Positions 26,042 through 51,020 of a stretch of 64,000 nt of DNA are shown here, one piece after another. Source of the DNA: an uncultured bacterium (GTDB lineage Bacteria > Omnitrophota > Gorgyraeia > Zapsychrales > Aceulaceae); the NCBI GenBank assembly GCA_937930175.1, contig CALGLP010000015.1, positions 132,174-196,173 on the forward strand, read 5' to 3'. The notes beneath the pieces are model-generated. The model worked only from the letters and a program-made list of their open reading frames with translations, made no database searches and was not told the origin of the DNA. Each line of letters opens with the position of its first letter. Within the stretch, counting starts at the first letter, position 1. Made by a program: the position numbers and the translations under genes.

Positions 26042-27720
<1,679 letters not shown>

Positions 27721-27751
27721 TTGACTTAAAGGTTACTTACTTTTATTGGCA

Positions 27752-27780
27752 AATATAGCACCCGAACATAACGTTGTCAA
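27752..27780 (-). promoter_or_regulatory. Sigma70-type promoter of pyr operon (TTGACA-17-TATATT)
   Basis: Consensus -35, 17-nt spacer, near-consensus -10, ~220 nt upstream of pyrR ATG. Confidence 0.55.
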
Positions 27781-27914
27781 GGACTAGACGTACTAGGAAA
27801 AAAAGCAGCAGAGGATCGAAGATAGAAAATGGATGTTAGAAAAGTCAGAAACAAAGAAGAATAATGAGAAACTTTTATCAGATTTTGCCATGCTTTCTTT
27901 CTGTCCTCTCCCCT

Positions 27915-30900
27915 CTAACTTCCAACTTCTAACTTCTCTTTTTCTTCAAAACCCAAAAGCGCATTAAAGCTTGTGATCGGCGCTGCCTCAAGGCCTCCTA
28001 CCTTTGAATATTGCTCAGCCCTAGGCACTCCGCTATCTGTTAAGAATTGACCAAAATTCATAGGAACGATGCCAGTAATCACCGGCACAAAGCCCGGGAT
28101 GTTTTCTAAGTCCACCCCCTGCCATTCAGGCGGAAGGTTAAATTGAATCGGCGAGGAGCCCGTACGCTTAAGCTCAAGGTTGGCGGAGTTGAGGTCGATG
28201 CCGCCTTTGAGAAAATCGCTATTAGTACCAGCCTTACCGGTATCAACCCCATCCGGAGCTGCAACATCAAGAACAATCTCATCCGGTAAGTCAGGAAGAA
28301 ATTCTTTAGGGGCGACAGAAGCTGGCTCCATTTCTCCTGCATCGGCTTGATTTGGCTGATCCATTGATGAATCTGCAAGCTCTAAGGGATTCAGATGATG
28401 GCCATGCACACCAACATCTTGATACCATTGCTTATATTGCGCAAGCGTGAATTCATGCTCAAGCAAGGCTTTTTGTTGAGATAACAGCGCAAAAACAATG
28501 CCCCTTTCTTTGTACGCTTCATTAAACTGATCAACCAATTCTTGAGTCAAATAGGCATCATTGAGAAGAACATATTTGATTCCATTGGAGAAATCATCAG
28601 CACCTTTTTCAGCCAAAATGACCGCAACGCCATCCTTATACGCCGTTCCGCTTGCAGTGCCAACACCTGCCCCTGCTCCAGCCCGATCCTCATCTCGAAT
28701 CTCAAACGGAGCTGTATAAAATGTCTTTTCTGAAGATATCCCGTTATTTAATAAATTAAGCAAGCCATCCATCATGTCGGTTGCGCTCCCCTTAGCAATT
28801 CCATGCGCTTGATATTGTCTGCCAATCTCAGGGTCAACTTTTTCAAAAGTAAATTTCTCATCCGGCATTAAACCATGACTAACTAAAAAGGCAGTATCTG
28901 CAGAGCCTTTTTTCCCATGAAATCCCTTCACGTCTTCCACAGACGTTATGCCGAGAAAAGCTTCCTCCTCCAAAGAAGATGCCTCATCGGAGATATAACC
29001 CAAAGCTGAGAAATGTTCTTCTTTTATTCCTTTCCGAATCAAATCAAGAATAATCGCGTTTAGCCTTACCCGAAGATCTGCCTGCGCAACCTGATCATTC
29101 ATCTCAAATGCCCCTTCGCTCAATAAAGCATCAAGCAAAGTAGACATAGCATTATCATAATAACTGAACAATCGTTGACGAGCTTCAAAGCTGCTCTTAA
29201 CAAAGGCTTGAAAATCCTCACTTACCTGAGAAGCTAGAAAAAGATCAAAGTCATCATACTCATCCTCTGCAGCATCCATCATGTTGATAAATTCATCAAC
29301 GCGCTGCAATCGAACAGCATCATCCTCTCTACCGGTGATTATTTTATTAATGATCTTGAGCTTAATTGGATAAAGATGCTCTTGAGGTGATGTTTCTGTT
29401 TCCGATAGCATCTTTTTGATAATACTCCATCTGTCGCCCAATAAACTTTCAAGCAAAGATTCATCACCTTTTTTCAAAAACTCCATTACGGCGGCATTAG
29501 CTTTTTTATCATCATAAGAAGAAAATATTGTCGATATCTTATTTAAAAATGCTCGCTCTTCTTGATAAATCTCAGATGAGAACAGGCCTTCCAAGCCCTC
29601 TCTCTTGTAAATATACTTCATACCCGTGTTAAAATATTTCTGAAAAAGATCTTCATTTCTTTGAACAATCTCACGCTGAATCTCAAGGCTTCGTTTCTCC
29701 ACCCAGGCCTCTTCCAGGATTCTTCTCATTTCAAAAAACTTTGCTGCAGCAGCTTCTCTAAAGCCATCAAAAAGACTATGCAAATTTTCATGAATAATTA
29801 TTTCTATAATACGAAGAATATTTTTAGAATCAGTAACAACAACATCAACCAACCCCGTACTATTACCGTCAGTAAGCAACAAGTGATAACCTTCAATCCT
29901 GCTATGAAACCCCGAGTCTAAAAGATGATTGACCCATGACGATCTTGGAACGAAAAGAATGCTAGAGGGATTAACGTTGAGATCGGGGTACCTGGAGGCT
30001 TCATTCTTGAAGATTTCAAGAGCTCCTTTCTGCCGATCAGATAGCTGATCGTAAGGCAAGGCTCCCCCTTCAACCTCCTTAAGTGCTTCAATAAATCCAG
30101 ACAAAGTCCCGTCCTTCCAATGCTGCCTAAGCTTTGCTAAATGGCCTTCTTCATCAATGCGTGAATAGCTATCCATTCGCTGGTCAATATTAATGATCCC
30201 GGAGGAGGCTTGAGTTTCAACTTCATCTACAATAGAATTTGGATCATTAAATCCAGCTTGAATCGCTTGAGAATCAAAAAATTCTTCTCGTGAAGCCGCA
30301 TCACTAGTTTGATCTTCGAAATCAAGCGCTAATCCCAAGAGACGCACCCAGCCATTTTCCGTCATTGAGTTCATTAAATTATCAGATTCACCGATAGCTG
30401 CTCCGATATCAATAATTTTCAATTTTCTCCGGGCTGCTTCTAAATCTTGGAAGCGTCCCTGTTCATCAAAACCCATATCGCGTATTTTCAATAAGACGCT
30501 CTCTACTGAATACTTTTCCTGCACTTCCCTTAATGACTTAGCCGGCCTCGGTGTTCCTCTATCGTCTTCAGCATCCATCTGCATGACAATCTGCTCTGTC
30601 CCAACTCCTCTCAAGCCGCCTTCATATCTTTTATAAACCCCATCATTTTTAAATAACATTTTTAATGTTCTGATCGTTGACAAGATAAATTGCTCTCCCG
30701 CCTTTTGGTCCCCCGGGGATAGGCCAGAAAGCAGATATTCCATATTTTCAACAAATTTCTTTGCATACCGAGGCCCGTCATTGTGCTTTTCGATATTATA
30801 AAAGACAACATCGACAGATAAGACAGGATTATTCTGATCCGCACCCTCAAAGACTCCAACCGTAATGCGTGAATACCCTTGCTCTGGCCTAAAGTCGGTC

Positions 30901-33900
30901 GTAAAGGGGCGCACAGAATATTGCCTTGATTTCTCGCTAAATAATTCTTTAAATATTTCACTCTCCTCCAATGCTTTCGCATACTTTATTTGAAATTCTG
31001 ATAGCTGACCATTCACAGGTAAATCCCCATCAACATAAACCATAAGATCTAAATCCTCGCTTAGGCCATCAAACTTCTCTTGATATGTTCCGCGAATAGA
31101 TGAGCCGGAGTCCATAACGCTACGTGCAGTAATGCCTGAACCTTCTAAAAGATTCTCTGTCATCTCCTCCAAGGCTTTTGACAAGCGCTGAACATCCTGC
31201 CATCTTGTCAAATAAGGAACAGCTTTGTACTTTTGCACTTGATATTCTGCGAGATCATCAATGACGCGATTAATGCCAAGAACCTTCACGGCACCCCGGC
31301 CAACGCTATCGCACTTAAATCCATCACTCGATCCCAAATCACGAAAACCTTTGGGCATTCTACTGATAAGAACACTTTCGGTCTTTTCCATCATCTCTCT
31401 CATCTCTTTCAGCCCCTCAGCGGCTGTTTTTCCATTATAATAGTAAATTTTATTAGGGGGCTTCCATTGGGGGTATTGGGTCTGGATTTCATGCATCAAA
31501 TCTTGGATGACCTTTTTCGAGGACATAGGCGCCAGAAAAACACCGGAACCAAGAGGAATCGCATGGCTCGAGTCATCCTTGCGCGCGGTAAATCCACCCA
31601 CAGGCCAATCGTTCTTCTCTAAAAGTGGGTTTAATAAAAAAGATTTGTTTTCTAAAAGAATCTCTATGGGGGTTACATAAGCAAAAGATGCCGATTTATA
31701 CGTAACGGCTTGATTAACAGAGAAATGCACAAATTCCGTTCCTATCAAAGAACGAACCTTGCCTTCTTTTAGTAAGCTATCAAAAGCATTTTCATCGTTC
31801 AGGGTCTTCAAAATATTCGCAGGCAAAAGATATCCAGACATCAATACAGCTTTGACAAGATCAAGATTGTCATTGATCTGATGCATGGCTAAATTGCCAG
31901 ACAAGCCTTCTTGAGATAAAAATGTTTCAACATTATCAATCTTAGAGACTGACTTAAATGAAAACTTCTGTGCCTGATTCGGATCAGTCTTGTAGGCGGA
32001 CTCAAAGCTTGGGATAACCCGGCTGGAAAATTTATTTAATGTCATAAAATCTTGTCGATATCCTGGAATGCGGAATTTGTGTTTTGTCAAAACCTGCCTC
32101 AACATAGACTCTGTAAAGAATTCCTCGCTTAGGTTTTGAACAATACTATTATAAATTTCTTGGTTAAACCCTAAATTTTTATTGATGAGCTCATCTGCCA
32201 ATTGCTCGGCAAGATGTATGTTAGCCCCTTGAGAATCACTAATTTTTTTTCGGTCAGTTAGCTCTCTAATGAACGATAAAAATATCTGAGAATAAAAACT
32301 TTTCCGGTGGTTAAGATTATTTTCAATTCCCTCTTCCAGAAGAGCATTAACGAATGGCGCCTGGAGCTCAAACGTAGATATCTTGCTTAGAGAATCGATA
32401 ATTTCAAAAATTAGCTTCTTGGCAGATAACTCAGGAAAGTGGCTATAGATTGCCAAAAGGGTTGATACAACATCATCGGCAACTATATTTTCTGCTGAAT
32501 TATTCAATTGGTAAATAAGGTCACTAAAATATTTTGAAAACATATCGATCTGATTTTTGGTCAATATAATTTTATTTGAATAGTTTAATTTATTAAAAAA
32601 TAGCTTTAACAAAGCATTGCGGGCTTTATCTGGAATTCCAGGGTCTTGAATATACTGAATAAACTCTTCTTTTTGCTGCAATGTTGCATCAGGCAAATAC
32701 TGGCTATTGTTCATAAGCTCTGCCATAGATGCCCGTGTCACGGGAGAAGTTCCGGGATCCAAAATGAAATCAAAGATTTGACTATCGTATTCAAGCCCAA
32801 TATAACCCTTCTTCACAAAAGAATCCGCTAAGGATCCTCGAAATGAGTCTGGGGACTTTTTATCCAGCATTATCTCGCAAACTTTCTTTGTTATTCTGTC
32901 GTGCCTAGAATCTTTTGCTAATTGACATAAAACGTTTTCTAAACTTTTCCGTAGATCAGCAGATATTTCTTTGTCTAATTCTTCTATAATTTGATCGAAA
33001 ATCTCATAATCTTGCTCTATCGATTCACTCAATACCGTCTCAAAAGCACTTCGCGCATCGATTTTCACATCGTTTCTTGCTAAAATATTCATGACAAAAT
33101 GAATATTTTCGTACGTTGGCATGGGGTCATAATAATACCCCCGATTTGAAACAAAAAGGGTGATTGCTTTGGCTAAAATCAGTTGAGCCTCAAAATCCAT
33201 TGGATCAACTTGCTCAAGCTCAGCGAAAGCCTGCTCAATCAGAAATTTATTTTTGGGATATCTGACGAGAGAATTGAAGTGGTCCCGTGCATCGCGAGAT
33301 AGCGCAGGAACGCCTTTTGCAAATGCTTTAAAGTCCTCCAAGGTCAGCGGTTTTTCTTTTCCATATGCACCTACCTGGAAATAATAAGCGTTAACAATCG
33401 CATTATGCAAAGGAGGTGAATCGATCTTGAGCATTTCGGAATATGCTTGTGGAAAAAGACTTGAGTCACCTTGAAAGACTACGGTGAAAATGGACGTTAA
33501 ACTTTCTTCTCCTTGATCAGGTTGTTGCGCATATAGCTGAACAATCTCAGGCAATAAGGCTGGGTCCCGCAAAGCGCTCATGCCTACGGCAGCAGCCCAA
33601 AACCCTCCCAGCTCATAAACGGAAGGCTTGGTCTGTCCTAACGCTAATATTTTTTCACGCGTTAATTTGAAATCTTGATTGGCAACGACAATTTCTGTTA
33701 ATTTTCCTAGAATGTCTCTTGTTTCGTATTTGCCTTGGGTTCGAAGGCCAACTCCCGATGGACTCATTTTACTTGACCCATCTTGGAAGTTAATGCGAAC
33801 CCTATCTTTATTTGACTGAACAATAAGATCATCTCCCTCTACAATAATTTTTACATCCTTGGCTTGCGCGAGGCGGTCAAGGAGCTTTTTCTCAAGCTTT

Positions 33901-36032
33901 CTCACAGTTGGCCCATGAAGAGACCAGGCTAAGAAGCCAAGAATGCTTGCAGCAAAAACTCCAAGTACAGAAAACATTATTCGATCTGAAGCGCGTATTG
34001 CTTCAACAGTTTCTTGAACAACGCTTTGCTGTTGCTGTAAATATTCTTGATTCTCAACAAGGGCTTCATCCACGCACATGACATAACCAGCAGAGCCATA
34101 CTCAACATATGAAGAGGTTAGTCCTTTGATGGGTATGATATAAACCGTAATGCTATCCCCATTAATAAGGTAGGTCCGGGGAGGATACATTTTCACTGCT
34201 TCCAGATCGCCAATCCACTTTCCTGTGCGCTTAGATTCAGCCTGAAGATCAGAGGGAAGATTATTCGATATATAATCATAGCCTTGGTCTAATGTTACTT
34301 CGGCTGGAATGCTATCCTTAACCGGCGGGCCATCGACATCAGCTTGCGTTTCACCCACGGTTGAATCTCCGGATTTTATCGGTGGGCCATCGAGGGATGG
34401 ACTTGCCTTGACAGCCGCACCCTCTTTGAAAGATGCAACGGTGTTTGCTAAAGGCTGAGATTGATCCTGCGCCAACACGATTTGGTCTTCATTATCTTGG
34501 CTTGGTGTTTGGGCTGATGCGGGATTTAACGCCACGCTAATAAAAAGAGCTGTGCCGATGATGATCCCGGTAAAGATTGTTTTTGCTGCACTTGCTATAG
34601 ATTTTACAGTCATGCATGATGATATCGCAGGAACACCTGTAGCATTGCCAAACCCCCCCGAGAAATACTTTCGCGGGATGTGTTTCTTGGCGTAGGTGTC
34701 GTACTCGATCTTCAAGATATTGCACACACCTTTTTTGTAGGCGGCGAGATACTGTTGATAAATAACTTCAACATTAGAAGTTAGAGGAGAGACGTTAGAA
34801 GTTAGAAGAGGCGAAGAAGAAGCAGGAGTTGTGAGTTGTAAGTTATCAGTCTTAAGTGTTTCCGGGTTTTCCTTAGAACTTATGACTTTTGACTTATCAC
34901 TTTTTTCTCCCTTCTCCCTTCTATCTTCTCCCTTCAATCCTGCTATTTTCTTCTTATCCCCATACACTTTATTTAAGATCGATTCCTTGAGCGCTGTCTT
35001 GTACCACGTGGCCAGGACCATGGCGTGGAACATCTGCCTAAGCTCACTAAAGTTCTTGCCTTCGTTGACTTCACGTTCTAATAAAGGAATAAGCACTTCT
35101 CGCACAATACTTGAAGAGATATCAGAAGTTAGAGGAGAGATATTAGAAGTTAGAAGAGTCGAAGAAGAAACAGTGTTTGGTATATTGTCGTTAGTATTTA
35201 GTGGCTGAGTTTTTAAATGAGCGCCTGACTTATGGAGGCCATCGGCCGACATCAAGTCAGCCTGCGCGAATTTATCCCGTTTTGACTGCGGCCCAGCAGG
35301 CAAAATCGGGACTTCCCTTCCATCTTCTATCTTCTTCTCTCTACTCTCTACTTTCTCCTCTCTACTTTTCTGCTCTGCCAAATAGTCACTTTCCAGCATC
35401 ACCTTTAAATGACTCTCCGTCACCAATGCCTTGTCCGTGTCTTCATACACAACCGCCTTTTCAGGCACGATCCAGACTTTGTTAAAGGTATCAACCGGGA
35501 TATTGGTGGTGCCGTATTCTTCATAAGCCTTCTTGTAGACTTTAGCCCAGAATTCCTTGCCTGTTTCACTATCAGGAAGCATGAGAGAAGCCGTGACTTG
35601 CTTGAGGATATAATCCTGGGCCAAGAGTTCCTGGCCCATTTCTGTTTGTCCTAAGGCTTCTGGGATAATACGGTCTGATTCATACGGTGAAAGGTTGACC
35701 CACAGGTCCTCTTCAGGGGTGGTAAGTGTTGCTAGAAAGTAACGGGCAAGCATTTCACTTTCAGCTTTTAATTCATCACCTTGAAGGCCGGTGTTTCCAC
35801 TATCCACAATAAAATCAAACTGAAAAGGATTGTCCGGATAAACCTTAAGGCCTCTTAGCATCACCGGCACAAAGCCAGGGCTTAAAGGAACAACAGTACC
35901 GGGAACGGGGAGATTGAAAGCGCCTTGGGCTAGGGCTTCACGCGGGATAAGAGTCGTTGCCAAAAAGCAGGCAATAACCCCTGCGCAAACATTCTTGAAA
36001 AAGAAAGACTTTTTAAAACAACAGCAAAACAT
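27915..36032 (-). CDS. Giant secreted protein (2705 aa), function unknown; paralog of 36243..40724
   Basis: Signal peptide with ALA-Q cleavage site; N-terminal ~450 aa homologous to neighbour; 2-3 internal TM-like segments; S/T/L-rich repeats LLTSN(I/V)SPLTS(D/N); an HENLH (HExxH) motif; C-terminal GFVPVI motif. Confidence 0.7.
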   Translation of the reverse strand: MFCCCFKKSFFFKNVCAGVIACFLATTLIPREALAQGAFNLPVPGTVVPLSPGFVPVMLRGLKVYPDNPFQFDFIVDSGNTGLQGDELKAESEMLARYFLATLTTPEEDLWVNLSPYESDRIIPEALGQTEMGQELLAQDYILKQVTASLMLPDSETGKEFWAKVYKKAYEEYGTTNIPVDTFNKVWIVPEKAVVYEDTDKALVTESHLKVMLESDYLAEQKSREEKVESREKKIEDGREVPILPAGPQSKRDKFAQADLMSADGLHKSGAHLKTQPLNTNDNIPNTVSSSTLLTSNISPLTSDISSSIVREVLIPLLEREVNEGKNFSELRQMFHAMVLATWYKTALKESILNKVYGDKKKIAGLKGEDRREKGEKSDKSKVISSKENPETLKTDNLQLTTPASSSPLLTSNVSPLTSNVEVIYQQYLAAYKKGVCNILKIEYDTYAKKHIPRKYFSGGFGNATGVPAISSCMTVKSIASAAKTIFTGIIIGTALFISVALNPASAQTPSQDNEDQIVLAQDQSQPLANTVASFKEGAAVKASPSLDGPPIKSGDSTVGETQADVDGPPVKDSIPAEVTLDQGYDYISNNLPSDLQAESKRTGKWIGDLEAVKMYPPRTYLINGDSITVYIIPIKGLTSSYVEYGSAGYVMCVDEALVENQEYLQQQQSVVQETVEAIRASDRIMFSVLGVFAASILGFLAWSLHGPTVRKLEKKLLDRLAQAKDVKIIVEGDDLIVQSNKDRVRINFQDGSSKMSPSGVGLRTQGKYETRDILGKLTEIVVANQDFKLTREKILALGQTKPSVYELGGFWAAAVGMSALRDPALLPEIVQLYAQQPDQGEESLTSIFTVVFQGDSSLFPQAYSEMLKIDSPPLHNAIVNAYYFQVGAYGKEKPLTLEDFKAFAKGVPALSRDARDHFNSLVRYPKNKFLIEQAFAELEQVDPMDFEAQLILAKAITLFVSNRGYYYDPMPTYENIHFVMNILARNDVKIDARSAFETVLSESIEQDYEIFDQIIEELDKEISADLRKSLENVLCQLAKDSRHDRITKKVCEIMLDKKSPDSFRGSLADSFVKKGYIGLEYDSQIFDFILDPGTSPVTRASMAELMNNSQYLPDATLQQKEEFIQYIQDPGIPDKARNALLKLFFNKLNYSNKIILTKNQIDMFSKYFSDLIYQLNNSAENIVADDVVSTLLAIYSHFPELSAKKLIFEIIDSLSKISTFELQAPFVNALLEEGIENNLNHRKSFYSQIFLSFIRELTDRKKISDSQGANIHLAEQLADELINKNLGFNQEIYNSIVQNLSEEFFTESMLRQVLTKHKFRIPGYRQDFMTLNKFSSRVIPSFESAYKTDPNQAQKFSFKSVSKIDNVETFLSQEGLSGNLAMHQINDNLDLVKAVLMSGYLLPANILKTLNDENAFDSLLKEGKVRSLIGTEFVHFSVNQAVTYKSASFAYVTPIEILLENKSFLLNPLLEKNDWPVGGFTARKDDSSHAIPLGSGVFLAPMSSKKVIQDLMHEIQTQYPQWKPPNKIYYYNGKTAAEGLKEMREMMEKTESVLISRMPKGFRDLGSSDGFKCDSVGRGAVKVLGINRVIDDLAEYQVQKYKAVPYLTRWQDVQRLSKALEEMTENLLEGSGITARSVMDSGSSIRGTYQEKFDGLSEDLDLMVYVDGDLPVNGQLSEFQIKYAKALEESEIFKELFSEKSRQYSVRPFTTDFRPEQGYSRITVGVFEGADQNNPVLSVDVVFYNIEKHNDGPRYAKKFVENMEYLLSGLSPGDQKAGEQFILSTIRTLKMLFKNDGVYKRYEGGLRGVGTEQIVMQMDAEDDRGTPRPAKSLREVQEKYSVESVLLKIRDMGFDEQGRFQDLEAARRKLKIIDIGAAIGESDNLMNSMTENGWVRLLGLALDFEDQTSDAASREEFFDSQAIQAGFNDPNSIVDEVETQASSGIINIDQRMDSYSRIDEEGHLAKLRQHWKDGTLSGFIEALKEVEGGALPYDQLSDRQKGALEIFKNEASRYPDLNVNPSSILFVPRSSWVNHLLDSGFHSRIEGYHLLLTDGNSTGLVDVVVTDSKNILRIIEIIIHENLHSLFDGFREAAAAKFFEMRRILEEAWVEKRSLEIQREIVQRNEDLFQKYFNTGMKYIYKREGLEGLFSSEIYQEERAFLNKISTIFSSYDDKKANAAVMEFLKKGDESLLESLLGDRWSIIKKMLSETETSPQEHLYPIKLKIINKIITGREDDAVRLQRVDEFINMMDAAEDEYDDFDLFLASQVSEDFQAFVKSSFEARQRLFSYYDNAMSTLLDALLSEGAFEMNDQVAQADLRVRLNAIILDLIRKGIKEEHFSALGYISDEASSLEEEAFLGITSVEDVKGFHGKKGSADTAFLVSHGLMPDEKFTFEKVDPEIGRQYQAHGIAKGSATDMMDGLLNLLNNGISSEKTFYTAPFEIRDEDRAGAGAGVGTASGTAYKDGVAVILAEKGADDFSNGIKYVLLNDAYLTQELVDQFNEAYKERGIVFALLSQQKALLEHEFTLAQYKQWYQDVGVHGHHLNPLELADSSMDQPNQADAGEMEPASVAPKEFLPDLPDEIVLDVAAPDGVDTGKAGTNSDFLKGGIDLNSANLELKRTGSSPIQFNLPPEWQGVDLENIPGFVPVITGIVPMNFGQFLTDSGVPRAEQYSKVGGLEAAPITSFNALLGFEEKEKLEVGS

Positions 36033-36192
36033 ACCGTGGCCCTCAAATTATGTTTGCCTAATATGCTCTATCTATATAAAGGATATCATATAAATATAGG
36101 TATTTAGGGGGTTGGGGGGCACTGGAGGGAAAGCGCTTTCTTGAAATTTTCATCGTCGAGAATAAGCACGAAAACCACAGAAGGGCATTAAT

Positions 36193-36238
36193 TTCCTAAA
36201 TTAATTAAGACAACAAATTCGCCCTTGGGAAGGTTTGG
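36193..36238 (-). pseudogene. Duplicated 3' fragment of rsmI (…KGEFVVLINLGN*)
   Basis: Translates to the C-terminus of RsmI (intact gene ends …KGEFVVLINLQN* at 40879); flanking intergenic blocks are also homologous (ggaaagcg.tttc.tgaaa). Confidence 0.6.
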
Positions 36239-36242
36239 GAAC

Positions 36243-39200
36243 TTAAAGTCGGCTAAGTTCTAAAGAACTTTTTTCCGCATCATCAGGACCCAGGCCCAGA
36301 AACACATTAAAGCTTGTGATGGGGGTGATATTGATGATGACCGGCGTAAAGCCGATGATATTTTCTAATTCTAAATTTATCTTTTCGGAATTTGCTGACA
36401 CATCAAACTTGATTCCTTCACCTTTGCTCTTAATAATGCTATCAGTGCTTTTTAGGTCAATGCCACCTGGAGCTGGAGATGAGCTTGCCTGCGATGCCTT
36501 AAATAAGTCATCGGCACTCACTAAAACATTAGGGCTAGCTAAATCTTGACTCTTAGGAATGATCGATATTGTATCAGCTGCTTTATCATTATTCTCTGAT
36601 TTACAGGTGTTATTTAATTCACAATCCGCTACTTTTCTAACCTCCTTACGCTGAGAATGACTAGTTATTTTTAAGATTGCTAACTGGGCTTGCCTGTCCC
36701 GTGTAGCATTTTGCTCTTGGCCACGAGACAATACAAAATCGGATTTCTCGTCTTTCGTCGGCATGATGGCTGTTGCTGTATCAAGAAGTATCTGCGCAGC
36801 AGTGTTTTCGTCGCCATATCTCAGCCCTGCGACTATTTCTTGATCAATTAAATTTTCCGAAAGATTTAATGTGGCCTCAGGATTCTGCCTCTCAACATTA
36901 GCAACTGGCATTGAATCCACATCTTTATCTGGAAAACGAAACTGCGGGGTAGGCATTCTTGCCTCCTGTCGCTGGGCTCCCTGCTGTTGTGCTGTCTGAC
37001 TCGTTTGTGATGCTTGCGCATTGCCTGGCAGATCGCTGATACGATAATCAAATGTTGCTTTCACGCCACGGTGCATTTGATCAGCTCCAATCGCTGCCTC
37101 AATAGCATTTACTTGCCCTGAAGTTAGCGTGACAGTCGACTCCTTAATGGTTTTCCAATTACGCCAAAAATAATCAACTTCTTCATCGCTGAGCGCTAGT
37201 CCTGCTGCATTGAGGTGACCCTTTAAGATGCTCAGAAAGTCTCTATCAACTTTATCCTGTAACGCGCTCCATACCCTTAGTAAAGCTTTGTCGGAGGTGT
37301 CGTATTCTTCGGGATGCATATCCAGCATGCGGTTTCCCTGACCGTTATAACTAGGAAGTTTATACCATTTCTTAGGGCTGCTAATATATTTTGCATTTGG
37401 TAGTTTTTGATCCCAAGTCGAACCAGGAGGTGACGATTCCCCAGGACTTTTCGTATTTTCAATCGTATCACTTCTCGGGCTTGTGTTTTGGTCGTTATCA
37501 GAATTCATACCGACGCCGAAACGCAATGTCAAAAAAAGTGCGGCCATCGGGATCAACAAAAGTAACCAGCGAAGCTTTTTGGACATCCGTGGCGGCCGGC
37601 GAACGCTAGCCACCAATCTTTCGACGCGACTTGCATCCTCCGATATGACCGCCTTCATAATTTCTCTAACTCTTCGTTGTGAAATATGCTCAGGCAGCGA
37701 CTGCTCTAGGGTCGAGGGAGTCATGACTTCACCGAACTCCTCTTGCTCCTTCACAGCCGCTTTTACATTATTACGAATATTCTTAGGAATAAAATTAATG
37801 GCATCCTTAAAAAAGATTTCCCTGGCCCACTCAGCTCTTGCCTCTGTCACCTCGCCGGGAGACATTGAATCAATCCCTGGACATTGCTGCTGAAACATCG
37901 CTTCTTCCTCATCGCTAAGTTTTTCATTTTGCGAGACCATTTCTTCCCGTGCATGCAAAAAACTACGGACAATCCGTCTGATAACATAACGCTGACTTAA
38001 GAAACGGCTTAAAACATCTGGGGTGTCCCGAAATTGCTGCTGAGCTTGGTAAACTAAACCTAACCCAAACCTATTATATTCACGGGCTTGGCTATCTTCT
38101 GAAGGTCCTTCCTGGTCATGGTTTTGAAGGTTCTCCCAAAGCTGTTCATCAGCTAGCGTCTCATTGCTGATTTGAACATTCAATTGTTCACGAATCGCCC
38201 GCATCAAAGGAGCCCACATTTCCAATGGAAAGAAACCCAAAAACTGCCGCTTACCTTCTTCTGTGTTAAAAAAGTTTGCATTATTCGAACGTATAAGGTC
38301 TTCTGCAAGTTTTCTTAAATTGTCCGGCGCCAAAAGATGTTTGACGATGTCCTCATCACATCCATCGTGCGAGGCATGAAGCTCATAGACAAGGCCAAGG
38401 CCAAAATCACTATAAGCCCTTTTCATGGTATCTTCCATTTCAAGTTGCTCGTCACGAGACGCGCCTGATTCTGCACGCGATAAAGAATAAAATATTTGTT
38501 CCGCAAGAATTTTTCCAAAAAGATCGTCCACGTAAACTATATTGAGAAATCTTTGTATGTTCTTTTCTTTTGGCTTGCTACCGCCTAGCACGGGAAGCCC
38601 TAGAACGCTTAAAGGCGCGTTATCGTGTTTTCGACTAACTAAATCTAACAATGTAAACGCCCAATAAAGATCCTTTTCAATCGTCTCAGGATTAAGATGA
38701 TTATTTGCATCAAGAAGCCCTGTAATAATTTTTATTTCAATGGTTGGAAAACTGCCAGATAAATTGATGATACGACTATGCTCCCTAACGCTACCTCCGC
38801 TAAACGGCGCTTGTTCATCTAGCACCTTGACATAAGACCCCCTCGGCTTCGTCCATGCATTACCGGATAAGGCACGCCACATAGCTTCATAAACTTTTCC
38901 CACTCTACCTAAGCGCCTTTGATCAACCTTAAGCTGTCCACCTTCCACCAAAGACTTACGACTTATATGCATATGCACACTATAAAGACCTCCAACCATG
39001 GGCCCCTCATTAAGCTTTTTAAGAATATTCTTAAACGCATCCCAGTCTTTTCGCGTGTTAAGGTTTATTTTTGTTTTTAGCTCATTAAAGTTTTCGCGCC
39101 CTTCAAGCTGCCAATCAGGAGGAACAATAGATTGAATACGTTCAATAACACGTTGTCGCTCGCTCGCTGTAAACGATTGGCCTGGATCAAGCCCAAGCAA

Positions 39201-40724
39201 TTGTTTAATATTAAACTCAAGCTCTAAAGAAAACGTGATGTCTGAAGGAAATTGTTTGAGGATGACATCCCCTGCCAAAGCGGAGAAATCCTTAGAAAGA
39301 AACGATGTTTCGAGGGCGTTCGGTGCTTCTGCCAATGATTGCCGTTGAGCACCAACACTTGTGTTAGCTGGCAATCCCGCAGCGGACTGATTGACGATAA
39401 GCGACGAAGCAGCTGGCTGAGAAAGGCTTTTCAATCGAACCTCAGCAACGCTAAGATCTCCCATAGCCTGATGACCATTCAAATCTTTTTCGTTTGCCGT
39501 TATGATGATGCTGGATCCAGCAATTCCGCCAAAACCTAGCCTCTCACCCCCTGCAAAATATTTTCGTGGAATATTTTTATTTGTATATGGGTCATATTCA
39601 ACCTTGATAAAGTTCATGACGCCTTTTTTAAAGGAATCGAGATATTGATTATAAATTTCTTGAGAGGTGGGATTTATGCTTGAAACATCGCCAATGTCCT
39701 TTTCTGCTAATGACATCTTGCTATGTACCAATTCAATTCCTTCCACCTTATTCCTATCTGCGTAGACTGTATTTAAAATGGAGTCTTTAAGCTTTGTTTT
39801 AAACCAATAGGCTAAAATGATTGCATTGTAGATTTGCCGCAATTGAGAAAAGTTTTTACCGCTGTTGACCTCTTTTTCAAGCTCAGGGATGATCATTTCC
39901 CGGACGATACTAGAAGAGATATCGGAAGGAAGAGGCTGGAGGCTAGAAGTTAGAGAAGAAACAGAAGATGGAGAATAGACGATGGAAGATGGAGCCGAAT
40001 CAGAAGAAACTTTATCGACGTTGCTTTTTCTATCTTCTATCTTCTCCCTTCTATCTTCCTTGCTTTTCTCCATTGCCACATAATCTTCTTCGATCATTAC
40101 TTTTAAGCTGGATTCCACCACAAAAGCTTTGTCGCTTTGTTCATACACAACCGCTCTTGCAGGCACAATCCAGACCTTGTTAAAGGTGTCGATAGGGATA
40201 TTGGTGGTGCCATATTGTTCATAAGCTTTTTTATAAACTTCTTTCCAAAAGACTTTCCCTTGATCTCCTTCGGGATAGATAAGAGAAGCTGTAATTTGTT
40301 TTAAAAGATAATCTTGAGCCAGCATGTCCTTGCCCATATCCGTTTGTGAAAGGGCGTCGGGGATAATCCGGTCTTTTTCGTAAGGGCTCAGGTTAACCCA
40401 CAAGTCATCTTGAGGAACGGTAAGCGAAGCCAAGAAATAACGGGCCAGCTTTTCACTTTCAGCTTTTAACTCATCACCGGCAAGGCCTGTGTTTCCGCTA
40501 TCGACAATAAAATCAAATTTAAAAGGATTGTCAGGATAAACCTTAAGACCTTTTAGCATCACCGGCACAAAGCCAGAGCTTAAGTTGACAATGGTTCCGG
40601 GAATGGGAAGATTAAAAGCAGATTGGGCTAGGGCTTTCGGGGGAATAATAGCAGTCGCCAGGAAGCAGAGAATAATTCCAAGGCAAATACCTCTAAAAAA
40701 GATATTCTTTTTAGCGCAAAACAT
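36243..40724 (-). CDS. Giant secreted protein (1493 aa), function unknown; paralog of 27915..36032
   Basis: Same signal peptide/N-terminal domain (about 70% identical over first ~230 aa), central TM segment (LLLLIPMAALFLTLRFGV), two FGLGLVY repeats, C-terminal GFTPVI motif. Confidence 0.7.
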   Translation of the reverse strand: MFCAKKNIFFRGICLGIILCFLATAIIPPKALAQSAFNLPIPGTIVNLSSGFVPVMLKGLKVYPDNPFKFDFIVDSGNTGLAGDELKAESEKLARYFLASLTVPQDDLWVNLSPYEKDRIIPDALSQTDMGKDMLAQDYLLKQITASLIYPEGDQGKVFWKEVYKKAYEQYGTTNIPIDTFNKVWIVPARAVVYEQSDKAFVVESSLKVMIEEDYVAMEKSKEDRREKIEDRKSNVDKVSSDSAPSSIVYSPSSVSSLTSSLQPLPSDISSSIVREMIIPELEKEVNSGKNFSQLRQIYNAIILAYWFKTKLKDSILNTVYADRNKVEGIELVHSKMSLAEKDIGDVSSINPTSQEIYNQYLDSFKKGVMNFIKVEYDPYTNKNIPRKYFAGGERLGFGGIAGSSIIITANEKDLNGHQAMGDLSVAEVRLKSLSQPAASSLIVNQSAAGLPANTSVGAQRQSLAEAPNALETSFLSKDFSALAGDVILKQFPSDITFSLELEFNIKQLLGLDPGQSFTASERQRVIERIQSIVPPDWQLEGRENFNELKTKINLNTRKDWDAFKNILKKLNEGPMVGGLYSVHMHISRKSLVEGGQLKVDQRRLGRVGKVYEAMWRALSGNAWTKPRGSYVKVLDEQAPFSGGSVREHSRIINLSGSFPTIEIKIITGLLDANNHLNPETIEKDLYWAFTLLDLVSRKHDNAPLSVLGLPVLGGSKPKEKNIQRFLNIVYVDDLFGKILAEQIFYSLSRAESGASRDEQLEMEDTMKRAYSDFGLGLVYELHASHDGCDEDIVKHLLAPDNLRKLAEDLIRSNNANFFNTEEGKRQFLGFFPLEMWAPLMRAIREQLNVQISNETLADEQLWENLQNHDQEGPSEDSQAREYNRFGLGLVYQAQQQFRDTPDVLSRFLSQRYVIRRIVRSFLHAREEMVSQNEKLSDEEEAMFQQQCPGIDSMSPGEVTEARAEWAREIFFKDAINFIPKNIRNNVKAAVKEQEEFGEVMTPSTLEQSLPEHISQRRVREIMKAVISEDASRVERLVASVRRPPRMSKKLRWLLLLIPMAALFLTLRFGVGMNSDNDQNTSPRSDTIENTKSPGESSPPGSTWDQKLPNAKYISSPKKWYKLPSYNGQGNRMLDMHPEEYDTSDKALLRVWSALQDKVDRDFLSILKGHLNAAGLALSDEEVDYFWRNWKTIKESTVTLTSGQVNAIEAAIGADQMHRGVKATFDYRISDLPGNAQASQTSQTAQQQGAQRQEARMPTPQFRFPDKDVDSMPVANVERQNPEATLNLSENLIDQEIVAGLRYGDENTAAQILLDTATAIMPTKDEKSDFVLSRGQEQNATRDRQAQLAILKITSHSQRKEVRKVADCELNNTCKSENNDKAADTISIIPKSQDLASPNVLVSADDLFKASQASSSPAPGGIDLKSTDSIIKSKGEGIKFDVSANSEKINLELENIIGFTPVIINITPITSFNVFLGLGPDDAEKSSLELSRL

Positions 40725-40878
40725 ACCGTGGCTCTCATCTTATGGTTTACTTTAGATTGTGTATCTACAATAAAGATAGCATACATTTATAAGTATTTAT
40801 GAGGGTTTGGTATGTGCTAGGAAAGCGGTTTCCTGAAAAGTCCACCGTCGGGAAAAAGAAAAAAGCTGTAAAATAATA

Positions 40879-41544
40879 CTAGTTTTGTAAATTAATTAAG
40901 ACAACGAATTCGCCTTTGGGGGGCTTTTGGGAGAAATGAGTGATGAGGACGCTCGCTTTATCCTTGAGGACTTCTTCAAACTTCTTTGTGATTTCACGGG
41001 TACAAATAACAACAGGATCGCCTAAAATATCTTTGATATCTTCCAATGTCTTAAGCATTCGATGCGGGGCTTCATAAAAAATAATGGTCCGCTGTTCGCT
41101 TTTAAGTTCAGCGAGCTTTTTCTGGCGGGCACCAGGCTTCACAGGCAGAAATCCTTCAAAAATAAACTGATGCGCTGGCGCGCCTGATAGGGACAAGGCC
41201 GCAATGAGCGCGGTGGCCCCAGGAATAACCGTCATGGGGATTTGGTTTTCTTGTGCCAACTTGATTAAGGCATAACCAGGATCGCTAATCCCTGGCGTTC
41301 CGGCATCCGTTACCACCGCAATATTCTTTCCTTGCTTTAAAAGGTCGAGGAGGTATTTCGATTTTGAAAACTCATTATGCTCATAATAGCTTGTGAGCGG
41401 GGTGGCAATGTCGTAGGCTTTAAGCAAGATACACGTATGGCGTGTATCCTCAGCCGCAATCAAATCAACGCTTTTAAGCGTTTCAATGGCACGCAAAGTG
41501 ATATCTTTGAGATTACCGATAGGGGTGGAGACGATGTATAACAT
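40879..41544 (-). CDS. rsmI: 16S rRNA (cytidine1402-2'-O)-methyltransferase
   Basis: 221 aa; tetrapyrrole-methylase fold motifs (LYIVSTPIGNLKDIT, AAEDTRHT, VTDAGTPGISDPG). Confidence 0.9.
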   Translation of the reverse strand: MLYIVSTPIGNLKDITLRAIETLKSVDLIAAEDTRHTCILLKAYDIATPLTSYYEHNEFSKSKYLLDLLKQGKNIAVVTDAGTPGISDPGYALIKLAQENQIPMTVIPGATALIAALSLSGAPAHQFIFEGFLPVKPGARQKKLAELKSEQRTIIFYEAPHRMLKTLEDIKDILGDPVVICTREITKKFEEVLKDKASVLITHFSQKPPKGEFVVLINLQN

Positions 41545-41699: not shown

Positions 41700-43532
41700 C
41701 TACTCTACCGTCACAGACTTGGCCAGATTGCGCGGCTGATCCACATCATTGCCTCGCACAACGGCAATGTAATAGGCAAGAAGCTGCAAAGGAATCACAA
41801 CAATAAGAGGCGTGAGCATCGGATGCACCGACGGAACATAAAGGACATGATTAGCCTGCTGCTTGATGCTTGTGTCTCCTTGGGTGGCAACGGCAATGAT
41901 CTTTCCTTTGCGTGCACGGATCTCCTGCATATTGGAAATCACCTTCTCATAGGTCTCGGCTTGCGGACAAAGACAGACCACAGCGCGATATTCATCGATC
42001 AAGGCAATCGGCCCGTGCTTCATTTCGCCGGCCGCATACCCTTCCGCCGGAATATAAGAAATTTCTTTTAGTTTTAAGGCGCCTTCAAGCGCGGAGGGAT
42101 AATTGACATTGCGTCCCAAGAAAAGAAAGGATCCAAAATGAGAATTGGCCTTGGCCACTTTCGCAATAAGATGCTTTGTCTTTAAGATTGACGTGATCGC
42201 CAACGGAATTTTCTTTAAATCGTGAATCATCACCCTGGCCTTTGACGGCGAGAGACTCTTTTTCACAAGACTTAATTTTAAACCAAATAAATACATCATG
42301 GCAAGCTGGGCTGTATACGCCTTGGTTGAGGCCACGCCGATTTCCGGCCCGGCGTAAGTATAAAGCACGCCATGGGCTTCTCGGGTCAACGTTGATCCAA
42401 CAACATTGCAGATGGCAATGACTTTTCCTCCCCGCGCCTTAGCCTCTCGCGCTGCCGCCAAGGTATCCGCAGTTTCTCCCGACTGGCTAATCGCGATGAC
42501 AAGAGTATTCTTGCTAACGATCGGCAAGCGGTAGCGAAACTCACTTGAAAACTCAACAGAAACGGATACACCGGCCAACTGTTCAATGATATATTCGCCC
42601 ACAAGCCCGGCGTGATACGCGGTGCCGCAGCCAATGATAATCACATGTTGCATCTTGCGAAACTCTTGATCGGTGAGGCCCAGGCCATCAAGGTGAACAG
42701 AATTTCCCTTCAGCCGCGCCGACAACATGGTATGCAAAACATGCGCTTGTTCATGGATTTCTTTGAGCATAAAATGAGGGAATCCATCTTTTTGAACTGC
42801 GTCGAGCTTAAACATTACTTTTTGGATCTTGGGAGAAACACTGCGACCTTGCGCGTCGACAATCTTCATGGAATCTTTCTGCATCACGGCCACTTCCCCG
42901 TCCTTAAGATAAATGATCTTGCGCGTCCTGTCTAAAACCGCTGAAACATCCGAAGCTGCAAAATATTCACCTTGGCCAACACCAATGATCAATGGCGAAC
43001 CTAAGCGCGCCGCGATCAACGTATCTGGAAAATCGCTAGAAATAATTGCCAGCGCAAAAGAACCTCTTAGCTTTTTAATCGTTTTCTGAACAGCCGATAG
43101 GAAATCTTTTTTAAGAAATAAAGAGATCAAATGGGCAATGACCTCGGAGTCCGTTTCTGAAACAAAGCGGCAACCTTGGGCCTGAAGCTCTTTTTTAAGC
43201 TCTTGATAATTTTCAATAATACCATTATGAACAATCAAGATCTTGCCGCTGGCATCACTATGGGGATGCGCATTAGCCTTGGTTGGCTTGCCATGCGTGG
43301 CCCAGCGCGTATGCGAAATGCCAAGATGACTTAAAGGTAACGGATTGTTTTTAAGAAGATCAGATAAGTTTTGGATTTTACCAGGGGTTTTCTGAAGAGC
43401 GAGCTGCTGATTTTTCTGGGAAATGACGCCCACACCACAAGAATCATATCCCCGATACTCCAAACGCTTTAAAGCCGTCAGGAGTATCGGCGTCACATCT
43501 TTTGTGCCTACATAGCCTACAATTCCACACAT
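41700..43532 (-). CDS. glmS: Glutamine--fructose-6-phosphate aminotransferase
   Basis: 610 aa; MCGIVGY N-terminal nucleophile, two SIS domains, C-terminal …VTVE. Confidence 0.9.
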   Translation of the reverse strand: MCGIVGYVGTKDVTPILLTALKRLEYRGYDSCGVGVISQKNQQLALQKTPGKIQNLSDLLKNNPLPLSHLGISHTRWATHGKPTKANAHPHSDASGKILIVHNGIIENYQELKKELQAQGCRFVSETDSEVIAHLISLFLKKDFLSAVQKTIKKLRGSFALAIISSDFPDTLIAARLGSPLIIGVGQGEYFAASDVSAVLDRTRKIIYLKDGEVAVMQKDSMKIVDAQGRSVSPKIQKVMFKLDAVQKDGFPHFMLKEIHEQAHVLHTMLSARLKGNSVHLDGLGLTDQEFRKMQHVIIIGCGTAYHAGLVGEYIIEQLAGVSVSVEFSSEFRYRLPIVSKNTLVIAISQSGETADTLAAAREAKARGGKVIAICNVVGSTLTREAHGVLYTYAGPEIGVASTKAYTAQLAMMYLFGLKLSLVKKSLSPSKARVMIHDLKKIPLAITSILKTKHLIAKVAKANSHFGSFLFLGRNVNYPSALEGALKLKEISYIPAEGYAAGEMKHGPIALIDEYRAVVCLCPQAETYEKVISNMQEIRARKGKIIAVATQGDTSIKQQANHVLYVPSVHPMLTPLIVVIPLQLLAYYIAVVRGNDVDQPRNLAKSVTVE

Positions 43533-46895: not shown

Positions 46896-48008
46896 TTACG
46901 CGCAAAATGCTGTTGCGGACAAATCCGTAAGAAATCTGGCTTTCAGCAAACCTTCATCCCATTCCCCTTGGGGCGTGGAATCCCAAACAATGCCGCCACC
47001 AATGCCCATTTCGCCGTGGCTGCCTTCGAGTAATAAAGTGCGGATCGGAATATTAAAATAAAAATCATGATTCGGCGCGATATAGCCAATAGCGCCGGTA
47101 TAAATTTTACGTTCCTCGCGCTCAAGGCCTTGGATGATCTGCATCGCGCGAATTTTCGGTGCACCAGTCACAGATCCCGATGGGAAAATGGCTTTAAAAA
47201 TATCAATTATTGGCCTCTCCTTAGCAAGGACCCCTTTAACCGTGGAGGTCATTTGATATAGCGTTTGATATGGCGTGACCGTAAAAAGTTTTGGCGTTCT
47301 AATCCGATTCGCAATTTTACCTAAATCATTTCTTAATAGATCAGCAATCATTACGTTTTCGGCGCGATTTTTCTCATCATGGCCAAGCTGCCAGCCTGCG
47401 GCTACATCTGAAAGAAAATTTTTGCCTCTGGGCCATGTCCCTTTCATGGGCTCCACAACAAGCCGTTTCTTTGTTTTCTTGATCAAGCGCTCCGGAGAAA
47501 GAGAAAGAATTTTGTATTGGCCTGTTTCAAGATAGGCGGGATATGGAACTGGTTGCCGACGCAAAAGCTGCGCATAAAGATCTTGGGCGTCCCCCGAGAA
47601 AGAAAAATGCAACTTAATGCAATAGGTGATCTGATATACATCACCCGAGGCAATGGCCGCTCGGATGTGAGCAATTGCCAAGGCATATTCCTCTTTTGAA
47701 ATATTGAGAGAGAACTCATGAACGGCAAAATGCGTCGCTCTTGATCCCTTGAAAGCAAAAGACTCTGGCCTTCGATACGCGCCCATGAGCAAAAGCGGAA
47801 AAGCGTATTCTTGATCTTGATGAAAAACTGTTTCAAAGCAATACCCTGCCTCATATGAAAGAAACCCAGCAATATAAAATCCCTCCCGGCGTAGCGCTTC
47901 CAGTTGATGAAAGGCATCCGCCAATTGCGAAGGATTTTTACAGCAAACAATGACGTCTGGCTTTGTGAAGAAAAAAGGCTTTTGTTCAAACTGGATCAAT
48001 ATATTCAT
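46896..48008 (-). CDS. pabB: Chorismate-binding enzyme, aminodeoxychorismate synthase component I-like
   Basis: Start at MNILIQ; SPERL, MKGTWPRGK, SGSVTGAPK, GIGGGIV motifs; small size (370 aa) favours PabB over TrpE. Confidence 0.75.
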   Translation of the reverse strand: MNILIQFEQKPFFFTKPDVIVCCKNPSQLADAFHQLEALRREGFYIAGFLSYEAGYCFETVFHQDQEYAFPLLLMGAYRRPESFAFKGSRATHFAVHEFSLNISKEEYALAIAHIRAAIASGDVYQITYCIKLHFSFSGDAQDLYAQLLRRQPVPYPAYLETGQYKILSLSPERLIKKTKKRLVVEPMKGTWPRGKNFLSDVAAGWQLGHDEKNRAENVMIADLLRNDLGKIANRIRTPKLFTVTPYQTLYQMTSTVKGVLAKERPIIDIFKAIFPSGSVTGAPKIRAMQIIQGLEREERKIYTGAIGYIAPNHDFYFNIPIRTLLLEGSHGEMGIGGGIVWDSTPQGEWDEGLLKARFLTDLSATAFCA

Positions 48009-48310
48009 GGAGCCCCACAACTAAAGTCGCGGTACCTTTCTGTATGTGATCCTTCTTCGCTCCAAAACTTTTATTTGGGAGCTTCGCAGGTTTCATCCGC
48101 CTTTCCAAAAAAGGGCGAACATCCGCCGAAGCACTGGTGCCACCATTTTCGCATTTCTCAACGTGCAAGCCCGTGGTATTCTGCGTAGGCGGATGACCTT
48201 TGGGCAGGTCTGGGTGCCCCTCTTTTAGCGAAGGGCTCAAGGTCATGACGCTGTCTTTAAAGATTTATTCTCCCTGGTCCACAACAACGCAGGGATTCTT
48301 TTGCAACACA
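48009..48310 (-). promoter_or_regulatory. Conserved structured 5' leader (repeat family 2, copy 1) upstream of pabB
   Basis: About 185-nt core (48014..48196) ~85% identical to 51033..51219; contains GGUACCGCG (T-box-like), CUUCGG tetraloop, duplicated GGCGGAUG able to pair with upstream CAUCCGCC; variable hairpin differs between copies but remains a hairpin. Confidence 0.45.
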
Positions 48311-50424: not shown

Positions 50425-51020
50425 TACATTGTTCCTTTAACTAATATTTCAATCTTGGCATCAATCTGCTCTTTGATCTTAAGCTGTGACAACGTCAGGA
50501 GCTGCGCTGCTTTTCTCAAAGCGCTAATGGCTTTCTGCACTTCTTTAAGATGTATATACGTATCCGCTAGATTTTCAAAAGTCACAGCCCGGTCTGGCTC
50601 AAGAGCAAGGGCCTTTTCAAAGAAAGGCAGGGCTTCTTGATGTTGGCCCAATTGATTGAGCAACCATCCTTTGTTGTGATAAATATTGGCATAATCCGGT
50701 TCGCTTGCGATTCCTTTGTCAAAATACAAGAAAGCCTCTTGCACCATGCCAAGCTCAATCATGCACAAAGCACGATCATTGTACGCCGCGCCATCACAAG
50801 GATTGTGCTTGATCGCCAAATCTAAATAAATCATCGCGTCGCGATCATTTCCCTCAATGATTTCTCTCTGGGCCTTAAAATACGCTATCTCTGAAGACCA
50901 GTCCCACTCTTGGGCAATCCGCAGGCCTTCGGCGACTAACTTTTTGGCCGCGGATAAATCTCCATACGTTATGGCCTCATCGAGTAAATGTCTTAATGTA
51001 GTAAGGCCAATAATCGCCAT
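50424..51020 (-). CDS. TPR repeat protein
   Basis: Start at MAIIG; 4-5 TPR units (AYNDRALCMIELGMVQEAFLYFDKGIASEPDYANIYHNKGWLL…). Confidence 0.7.
   Translation of the reverse strand: MAIIGLTTLRHLLDEAITYGDLSAAKKLVAEGLRIAQEWDWSSEIAYFKAQREIIEGNDRDAMIYLDLAIKHNPCDGAAYNDRALCMIELGMVQEAFLYFDKGIASEPDYANIYHNKGWLLNQLGQHQEALPFFEKALALEPDRAVTFENLADTYIHLKEVQKAISALRKAAQLLTLSQLKIKEQIDAKIEILVKGTM

Follow-up and report, generated by a model that had tools for sequence, protein, structure and literature searches.

How does the end of a housekeeping gene come to lie a second time between two large genes for secreted proteins? The question is raised by a 64,000-nucleotide (nt) stretch, hereafter the window, of contig CALGLP010000015.1 from assembly GCA_937930175.1 of an uncultured Omnitrophota bacterium. 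There, rsmI is followed on the minus strand by two paralogous genes, A (1493 amino acids (aa); 36243..40724) and B (2705 aa; 27915..36032), and the 210-nt region between A and B (36033..36242) carries a copy of the rsmI 3' end. We conclude that this scar is a genuine relic of an old tandem duplication of the ordinary kind, and consider it highly probable that the interval as a whole is the junction and upstream region which that duplication made, with a promoter as its functional part. The scar alone changes little, being a textbook by-product of tandem duplication, and its value is that of a marker: it proves the local duplication history of A and B and places one duplication boundary with a precision of a few bases. 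Of more use is what it led to, a conserved cis-regulatory module of fixed geometry in a very large, uncharacterised Omnitrophota family.

A relic of rsmI between genes A and B

The donor of the duplicated 3' end is the intact rsmI gene (40879..41544, minus strand), encoding a 221-aa 16S rRNA C1402 2'-O-methyltransferase (Pfam TP_methylase, 5.8e-33) that scores 268 bits against the NCBIfam equivalog TIGR00096, above the cutoff of 167.9; orthologues in relatives are likewise 217-221 aa long. The end of this protein, ...PPKGEFVVLINLQN, has a copy, ...PKGEFVVLINLGN, at 36229..36188, with 12/13 residues matching by tblastn. In nucleotides, an ungapped 45-nt tract at 36197-36241 is identical at 38/45 positions to 40888..40932, the original copy inside the rsmI coding sequence (minus strand, encoding ...SQKPPKGEFVVLINL). 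The complete scar (36188..36241, minus strand) consists of this tract, GGAAAT and a pseudo-stop TAA (36190-36188). Its 27-nt core, GGCGAATTYGTTGTCTTAATTAATTTA, is present at 36197-36223 and at 40888-40914 (26/27 identical) and nowhere else in the window, and 100 shuffles gave 0 matches with 3 mismatches permitted; a repeat finder likewise pairs 36189-36239 with 40880-40930 at 82%. The scar holds 13 homologous codons only, not a full methyltransferase domain, and lacks a start codon; its frame is shifted by one base from that of A and is closed by a TAG at 36262-36260.

The copy has also kept its place, with 155 nt between the pseudo-stop and the ATG of B and 154 nt between the real rsmI stop and the ATG of A. 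An earlier note on this DNA had claimed that the C-terminal codons of rsmI reappear upstream of B in the same orientation and relative position, and that a ggaaagcg.tttc.tgaaa block recurs in both intergenic regions; both claims hold, the block lying at 36129-36140 and 40821-40832. The significance of the alignment, which the same note had treated as a possible point of failure, is established by blastn of unit A against unit B, which returned a single colinear segment of 900 nt (73.7% identity, E=5e-152) running from inside the scar, across the intergenic region and into the coding sequence. Beyond it, weaker segments carry the similarity to ~1.2 kb of coding sequence, and the extreme 3' ends share a 29-nt match. 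Between the A-B region and the rsmI-A region, identity is 84% in the scar, 58% in the spacer, 78% in the box described below, 67% from box to -10 and 73% from -10 to ribosome-binding site. At the other side the edge of homology is sharp (39% identity upstream of 36242 vs 84% in the scar), and the scar starts at most 2 nt from the stop codon of A (36245-36243, minus strand), which touches it.

If a unit starting ~45 nt upstream of the rsmI stop was duplicated in tandem, the scar, its placement with respect to B and the colinear homology that reaches the coding sequence are all explained. Because the scar abuts the stop of A, the duplicated unit ended at the end of the family gene. The same event accounts for the illegitimate join, in which the base after the family-gene stop meets a position 45 nt short of the rsmI stop: a head-to-tail duplication of this unit yields exactly such a join. 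The earlier note's proposal of a tandem duplication of the rsmI 3' end, promoter region and 5' part of the family gene is thus supported, with a correction to its extent, as the unit ran to the end of the family gene and not ~1.3 kb into it. As in other tandem segmental duplications that include a fragment of a flanking gene, A and B are adjacent paralogues on the same strand, their colinear homology takes in non-coding upstream sequence and a truncated neighbour, and the junction joins the 3' end of one unit to the 5' start of the next. A third copy of the repeat was not found downstream of B in the window.

Paralogous 5' ends only 4.7 kb apart could in principle have misled an assembler, and many family members in public data end at contig edges. 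We nevertheless regard a chimeric join, or a repeat collapsed or expanded between paralogues, as extremely improbable. At only 74% identity, the units share no exact word above 24 nt, which is too little to confuse the usual assemblers. Moreover, an independently assembled 60-kb contig (ENA ERZ724084 NODE_345) is 100% identical over 16.5 kb that include rsmI, A, the scar and the start of B, which excludes the chimera that the earlier note had raised. In the public collection 3 contigs carry protein A, and of these the 60-kb one was retrieved. A short contig from the assembly of a second sample, ERZ724083, matches 36223..35032 at 99.9% without spanning the junction; its match ends at 35032, within a low-complexity linker of B. 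This contig (ERZ724083 NODE_109335; L079 among our fetched loci, which are denoted by L numbers) opens at positions 1-47 with untrimmed sequence, GTGACTGGAGTTCAGACGTGTGCTCTTCCGATCT, joined directly to window position 36223, which we take to be an Illumina TruSeq adapter and so contamination of the deposited assembly.

A 4.7-kb segment flanked by direct repeats that stem from a housekeeping gene's 3' end also recalls an inserted cassette, in which the 45-nt repeats would be attL/attR-like sites of an element carrying the rsmI 3' end, with A as its cargo. The variable rsmI-pyrR gap of relatives and the presence of an integrase and a resolvase in the window would suit such an origin. It does not predict that homology runs ~900 nt past the repeat into both coding sequences; A is the sole gene between the repeats, with no recombinase, and the integrase and resolvase lie 13-15 kb off beyond housekeeping genes. 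We therefore judge a cassette highly improbable, and retain the tandem duplication.

A promoter module shared by the family

Genes A and B have in common a signal peptide (MFC...ALAQ), an N-terminal region of ~400 aa and a C-terminal module of ~70 aa (GGIDL...GF.PVI...PITSFN.LLG), so that A (minus strand) reads as signal peptide, family N-domain, unique middle and family C-terminal module. Residues 1-470 of B and 1-407 of A are 54% identical overall and 73% identical across the first 225 residues. The middles of ~1000 aa (A) and ~2100 aa (B) are mutually unalignable, and a search with them against 159 loci found no similarity. This is the architecture of the family at large: a secreted N-terminal domain and a C-terminal module, both conserved, on either side of a middle that cannot be aligned. 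The N-domain family is confined to Candidatus Omnitrophota and counts more than 1080 proteins, most of them cut at contig ends. Species-representative genomes hold at least 598 pattern matches, at least 590 of which were confirmed as relatives, with several copies per genome. Tandem arrays are common in the family, given that 15 of 78 fetched loci carry two or three copies on the same strand.

Neither A nor B has a match in Pfam or NCBIfam, and a profile search of PDB sequences gave as its best hit prohibitin, which is non-significant (E=0.41); an AlphaFold2 model of the N-domain from a 30-sequence alignment has a mean pLDDT of 60.7, too uncertain for use. The earlier note had called both genes giant. 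At 1.5 and 2.7 thousand amino acids (kaa) they are large, yet below the usage established for Omnitrophota, which starts at 10 kaa. They resemble the giant genes of that phylum in encoding long secreted or membrane-associated proteins mostly without recognisable domains, and differ in being far below the sizes that two preprints deal with (bioRxiv 10.1101/2023.11.21.568195; 10.64898/2026.06.07.730766). Keyword look-ups in these two texts returned no promoters, no architecture of the A/B type (conserved N-domain, variable middle, C-terminal GGIDL...GF.PVI) and no tandem arrays.

Downstream of the scar and a diverged spacer, the A-B region carries a palindromic box, an extended -10 of the TGnTATACT class and a ribosome-binding site. 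The box upstream of B, GAAAGCGCTTTC, is a perfect palindrome at 36129..36140 whose centre lies at about -61 from the predicted transcription start; its counterpart upstream of A, GAAACCGCTTTC, is at 40821..40832. By analogy with the family architecture, the predicted extended -10 of B is TGaTATCCT (36080..36088, minus strand), 43 nt downstream of the box, and that of A is TGcTATCTT (40773..40781, minus strand), 42 nt downstream. Transcription is predicted to start near 36073 for B and near 40766 for A. GAGG-type ribosome-binding sites (GAGGG at 36044-36040 for B, GAGAG at 40736-40732 for A) stand 7 nt before each ATG, in a leader of ~40 nt. A generic scan for promoters and terminators gave counts no better than those in shuffled sequence. 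Near B it offered a -10-like site that would leave the ribosome-binding site outside the transcript, and the family-conserved TGnTATCCT was preferred; a possible antisense promoter from box A (AATACT on the plus strand, at 42 nt) has no equivalent at box B and was put down to chance.

The same arrangement recurs across the family. When upstream regions are anchored on the box, they align as GAAAnCGnTTTC, a C-rich stretch, an AT-rich stretch, TATACTT and a short leader. A box with up to 1 mismatch is present in 34 of 94 family upstream regions; the background in the fetched DNA as a whole is 0.023 per 330 nt. In 19 of 38 cases a TATACT (up to 1 mismatch) follows the box at a distance of 42-43 nt, 10 being exact at 42 nt, whereas no other single spacing between 20 and 69 nt has a count above 3. 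Composite sites of box and -10 number 28 in 1.93 Mb, and 21 of these lie directly upstream of family genes. The suggestion of the earlier note that the conserved block holds a promoter common to A and B is thereby strongly supported from other genomes and extended to their relatives: by sequence comparison, the 12-bp palindrome GAAAnCGnTTTC is a family-wide element of the promoter predicted for A, B and their paralogues.

The palindrome is probably a transcription-factor site, through which a dimeric DNA-binding protein would control A, B and the paralogues. Its centre near -60.5 places it where a class-I-type activator site is expected. In the lac promoter, an example of class I activator-dependent promoters, CRP is centred at -61.5. 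The family module resembles such promoters in having a palindrome ~60 bp upstream of the predicted start, a poor -35 and fixed helical phasing, and it differs from class I CRP promoters in that the box is unrelated in sequence to the CRP site and the start is a predicted one. The box also resembles the cre sites of CcpA and other LacI-type regulators. In Bacillus subtilis the high-affinity CcpA cre consensus is TGAAAGCGCTTTCA, and cre sites upstream of promoters can activate transcription (PMC3463425). Box B equals the inner 12/12 bases of this consensus and box A 11/12 of them, and box B is likewise a palindrome with a central CG that stands upstream of a promoter, as activating cre sites do (PMC3463425). 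In contrast to the cre 14-mer, the outer T and A are mostly unconserved in the family (usually A/G...C/T), being unmatched in the window and matched in L110; the spacing to the -10 is fixed at 42-43 nt, and the module is tied to one protein family in a distant phylum and not to carbon catabolism genes. The likeness to cre is thus a resemblance only.

Going one step further, GAAAnCGnTTTC with its extended -10 could be the operator of a putative dimeric regulator that jointly switches a phylum-wide, multi-copy, hypervariable family of large secreted proteins, a proposal that we put forward tentatively and regard as somewhat less probable than its opposite. If it is true, the A/B pair shows how new members are wired into the regulon, the promoter module having been duplicated with the signal-peptide and N-domain module. 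A weaker variant would have the over-conserved scar itself maintained, for example as a repeat permitting gain and loss of gene A. The promoter motif, its spacing and the predicted starts offer a testable handle for metatranscriptomics and for the search for the regulator, in a phylum that is uncultured and presumed host-dependent or predatory.

The rsmI 3' end was considered as a general part of the family promoter and rejected, as 64 of 68 rsmI loci have no family gene downstream and, in the loci that do have one, both the sequence and the distance differ. The box-N42/43-TATACT module was also observed before genes that the N-domain profile does not see, in L093 (~10874), L094 (~10783) and L119 (~10729), each time downstream of rsmI, and in L084 (~4018) it lies between rsmI and pyrR on the opposite strand. 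The module-bearing genes in L093 and L119 have starts like those of signal peptides. It may be that the regulon reaches beyond the family in its present definition, or that these genes are highly diverged members.

Two further repeats were seen in and around family genes. A CCACGG(A/G)G motif recurs near their starts (L110 6538-6545, L005, L009, L033, and window 36039-36033 and 40731-40725), in some cases within the leader, immediately before the ATG (GCCACGGTATG in A and B), and in others inside the first codons (MFFLPRRK). Short purine-rich direct repeats lie within the low-complexity linkers of A and B (34773-35173 and 39921-40060), where they encode S/T/L-rich stretches such as SSTLLTSNISPLTS on the coding strand.

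Age, mosaicism and the state of the scar

The duplication is old, since fourfold-degenerate sites in the aligned N-terminal codons of A and B are only 55-59% identical (~28% being the random expectation). The 5' coding part of A homologous to B (39504..40724, against 34623-36032 in B; minus strand) supports sisterhood of the two genes to about codon 285. Over residues 31-224, A and B are reciprocal best hits (75.8% identity, vs at most 70.5% to any other genome) and are sisters in neighbour-joining (NJ) trees with 88.5% bootstrap. Windowed identities show a likeness specific to A and B at residues 1-120 and in the low-complexity linker at 241-270, and none past ~285. The similarity that the earlier note had assigned to duplication over the 5' ~1.3 kb is therefore demonstrably duplication-specific up to about codon 285 only; beyond it, and in the shared C-terminal ~70 aa, the likeness is of family level. 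The same note's phrase that the copies 'diverged or recombined downstream' describes the result well, as sister support is 88.5% in one region and 0% in the next, the C-terminal modules are not reciprocal best matches and the middles cannot be aligned. A search for a single clean recombination breakpoint by windowed identities found none, the identities being patchy, and B sits on a long branch. Rapid divergence of the downstream part of B, or its replacement by recombination with another paralogue, would each fit, and the two are not cleanly separable. The pattern shows that the promoter and the 5' secretion and N-domain module travel together, with the rest of the gene replaced or diverged past recognition; surface or effector families subject to diversifying pressure typically behave in this way.

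Several of our results count against the view that the interval is the product of one old duplication with a promoter as its working part. Over residues 265-410 the A/B sister grouping has 0% bootstrap, and there A matches genes of other genomes at 55-61% but B at only 44%. As sisterhood is lost past about codon 285, a single whole-gene duplication is insufficient to explain the pair. The closest relatives offer little calibration: near-identical DNA comes only from the same population, and the best N-domain match elsewhere is 73% identical. With the best rsmI match at 72%, the duplication can be neither dated nor polarised by an outgroup. The scar is better preserved than it should be, with 84% identity (core 96%) against 58% in the adjacent 53-nt spacer and 55-59% at synonymous sites; if an identity of ~0.685 is expected, allowing for the coding constraint on rsmI, the binomial p is 0.012 for 38/45 and 5e-4 for 26/27. 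As for the promoter, the -35 regions of A and B are poor, and a tblastn search with approximate LacI and CcpA queries (E<=1e-3) found no homologues in the window and 159 loci (1.93 Mb of Omnitrophota DNA), nor did this DNA yield a candidate regulator for the box.

The pair accordingly departs from a simple tandem duplication in two respects, namely that A and B have become mosaic since, so that their sisterhood is visible in the 5' part only, and that the gene fragment has kept more identity than the synonymous sites in the coding sequence next to it. The first departure would be met by the following history, whose order we infer. A dsbA-glmS-rsmI-pyrR-pyrB backbone would have gained a gene of the multi-copy secreted-protein family downstream of rsmI, and a unit from ~45 nt before the rsmI stop to the family-gene stop would then have been duplicated head to tail. 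This would have put a dead rsmI fragment of 13 codons and a second copy of the promoter before the downstream gene B. Recombination with other paralogues, rapid divergence or the two together would subsequently have made A and B mosaic, until only the scar, the promoter region and about the first 285 codons still marked them as closest relatives. Ordinary events would suffice for this route: once the unit was duplicated, recombination between tandem paralogues could have fused the new 5' module to a pre-existing downstream gene.

For the second departure, the over-preservation of the scar, candidate reasons are chance, short-patch conversion from rsmI and a lineage-specific function; most likely the scar is a non-functional relic. 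Gene conversion would leave it a neutral relic, kept or reset by short patches from the rsmI 3' end 4.7 kb off and so appearing younger than the duplication. The excess identity would be explained, the two copies are in direct orientation with exact runs of 18 and 8 nt, and the family overall bears marks suggestive of mosaic recombination. Such short exact runs are, however, at or below the usual minimum for homologous recombination, and identity falls to 58% directly 3' of the scar, so that the conversion tract would have to be very short. We consider conversion unlikely.

Selection on the 45-mer for a new role, whether as a terminator for A, a distal site for B (the scar lies ~115-168 nt upstream of the predicted transcription start of B) or a recombination substrate for loss or amplification of A, could draw on the same excess (38/45 overall and 26/27 in the core, p ~0.01 to 5e-4). 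In its favour, too, the 5' arm of the scar pairs, in the B copy, with new downstream sequence and is followed by a U-rich tract, forming a candidate hairpin AAGGGCG...UGCCCUU (36181..36226, minus strand) that is partly scar and a weak candidate terminator for A. The best-conserved part, TTGTCTTAATTAATTTA, falls in the loop of this hairpin and not in its stem, and the hairpin is long and imperfect, its U-rich tail is interrupted and the terminator scan did not call it. The 101 nt at 36150-36250 fold at -22.3 kcal/mol (z=-1.9), a value equalled by 8 of 200 shuffles and thus non-significant. A search for an RNA fold that the scar would share with the end of rsmI found none: only the B copy folds, and that non-significantly. 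Rfam gave no match in either intergenic region and nothing credible in 35900-41000 at E<=1; over the whole window, two tRNAs alone reach the gathering score.

Comparison with relatives points the same way. The rsmI 3' ends of relatives are not conserved in DNA, which argues against a general function of the scar, and those that precede family genes in L082 and L110 differ both in sequence and in distance to the box. Other tandem arrays are without such an element: no rsmI fragment was seen before a second copy in the relatives' loci and tandem arrays, and the scar is for this reason held to be specific to the lineage of the window. Selection on the 45-mer thus seems to us decidedly unlikely, and we keep to a duplication relic without function of its own. 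As a separate observation, L005 (CAZYOA010000005.1) has a 164-nt block, 79% identical between copies, at 262-425 nt upstream of its family gene copy at 9998 and 336-499 nt upstream of the copy at 18901; the block is far upstream of the promoters and may be a second co-duplicated flank.

The rsmI-pyrR slot and the neighbouring genes

Following the scar also brought out the rsmI-pyrR junction as a recurrent variable slot in this Omnitrophota lineage. In relatives the backbone is dsbA-glmS-rsmI-pyrR-pyrB-pyrC, and the gap between rsmI and pyrR measures 156-360 nt in 11 metagenomic loci. In 7 loci it holds 2-5.7 kb of other genes, and in the window it spans 13.2 kb (27646-40878). Of 68 loci, 4 (L082, L110, L115 and L122) have a family gene after rsmI, and L110 has two in tandem. 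In L002, whose pyrB is 80% identical to that of the window, a tandem pair of family genes adjoins pyrR on its upstream side almost without a spacer. The content of the slot was seen to vary among loci L081, L083, L084, L088, L093, L109, L121, L110 and L002.

In the window rsmI, A, B and their neighbours all lie on the minus strand, in the order DsbA-like gene, glmS (43532..41700), rsmI, the 154-nt intergenic region, A, the 210-nt interval, B, pyrR, pyrB and pyrC. Further pyrimidine genes follow downstream of pyrC, and then a V-type ATPase operon. The locus is a housekeeping chromosomal neighbourhood.

Two features farther out deserve mention. A gene for a tyrosine recombinase of the phage integrase family (54065-55189) stands beside one for a serine recombinase (resolvase; 55609-56289), both on the minus strand; this pair, 13-15 kb from A and B and past housekeeping genes, may mark a mobile element and is unlinked to the A/B duplication. 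In addition, a repeat of ~198 nt is shared by 48007-48196 and 51024-51218 (minus strand) at 81% identity, with sub-blocks of up to 91%. Its copies lie just upstream of, and overlap, the 5' ends of two unrelated genes, for a chorismate-binding enzyme (46896-48020) and a tetratricopeptide repeat (TPR) protein (50424-51035). The small open reading frames over the repeat are unconvincing in their conservation and it has no Rfam match; it may be a duplicated leader or promoter, or a small repeat element.

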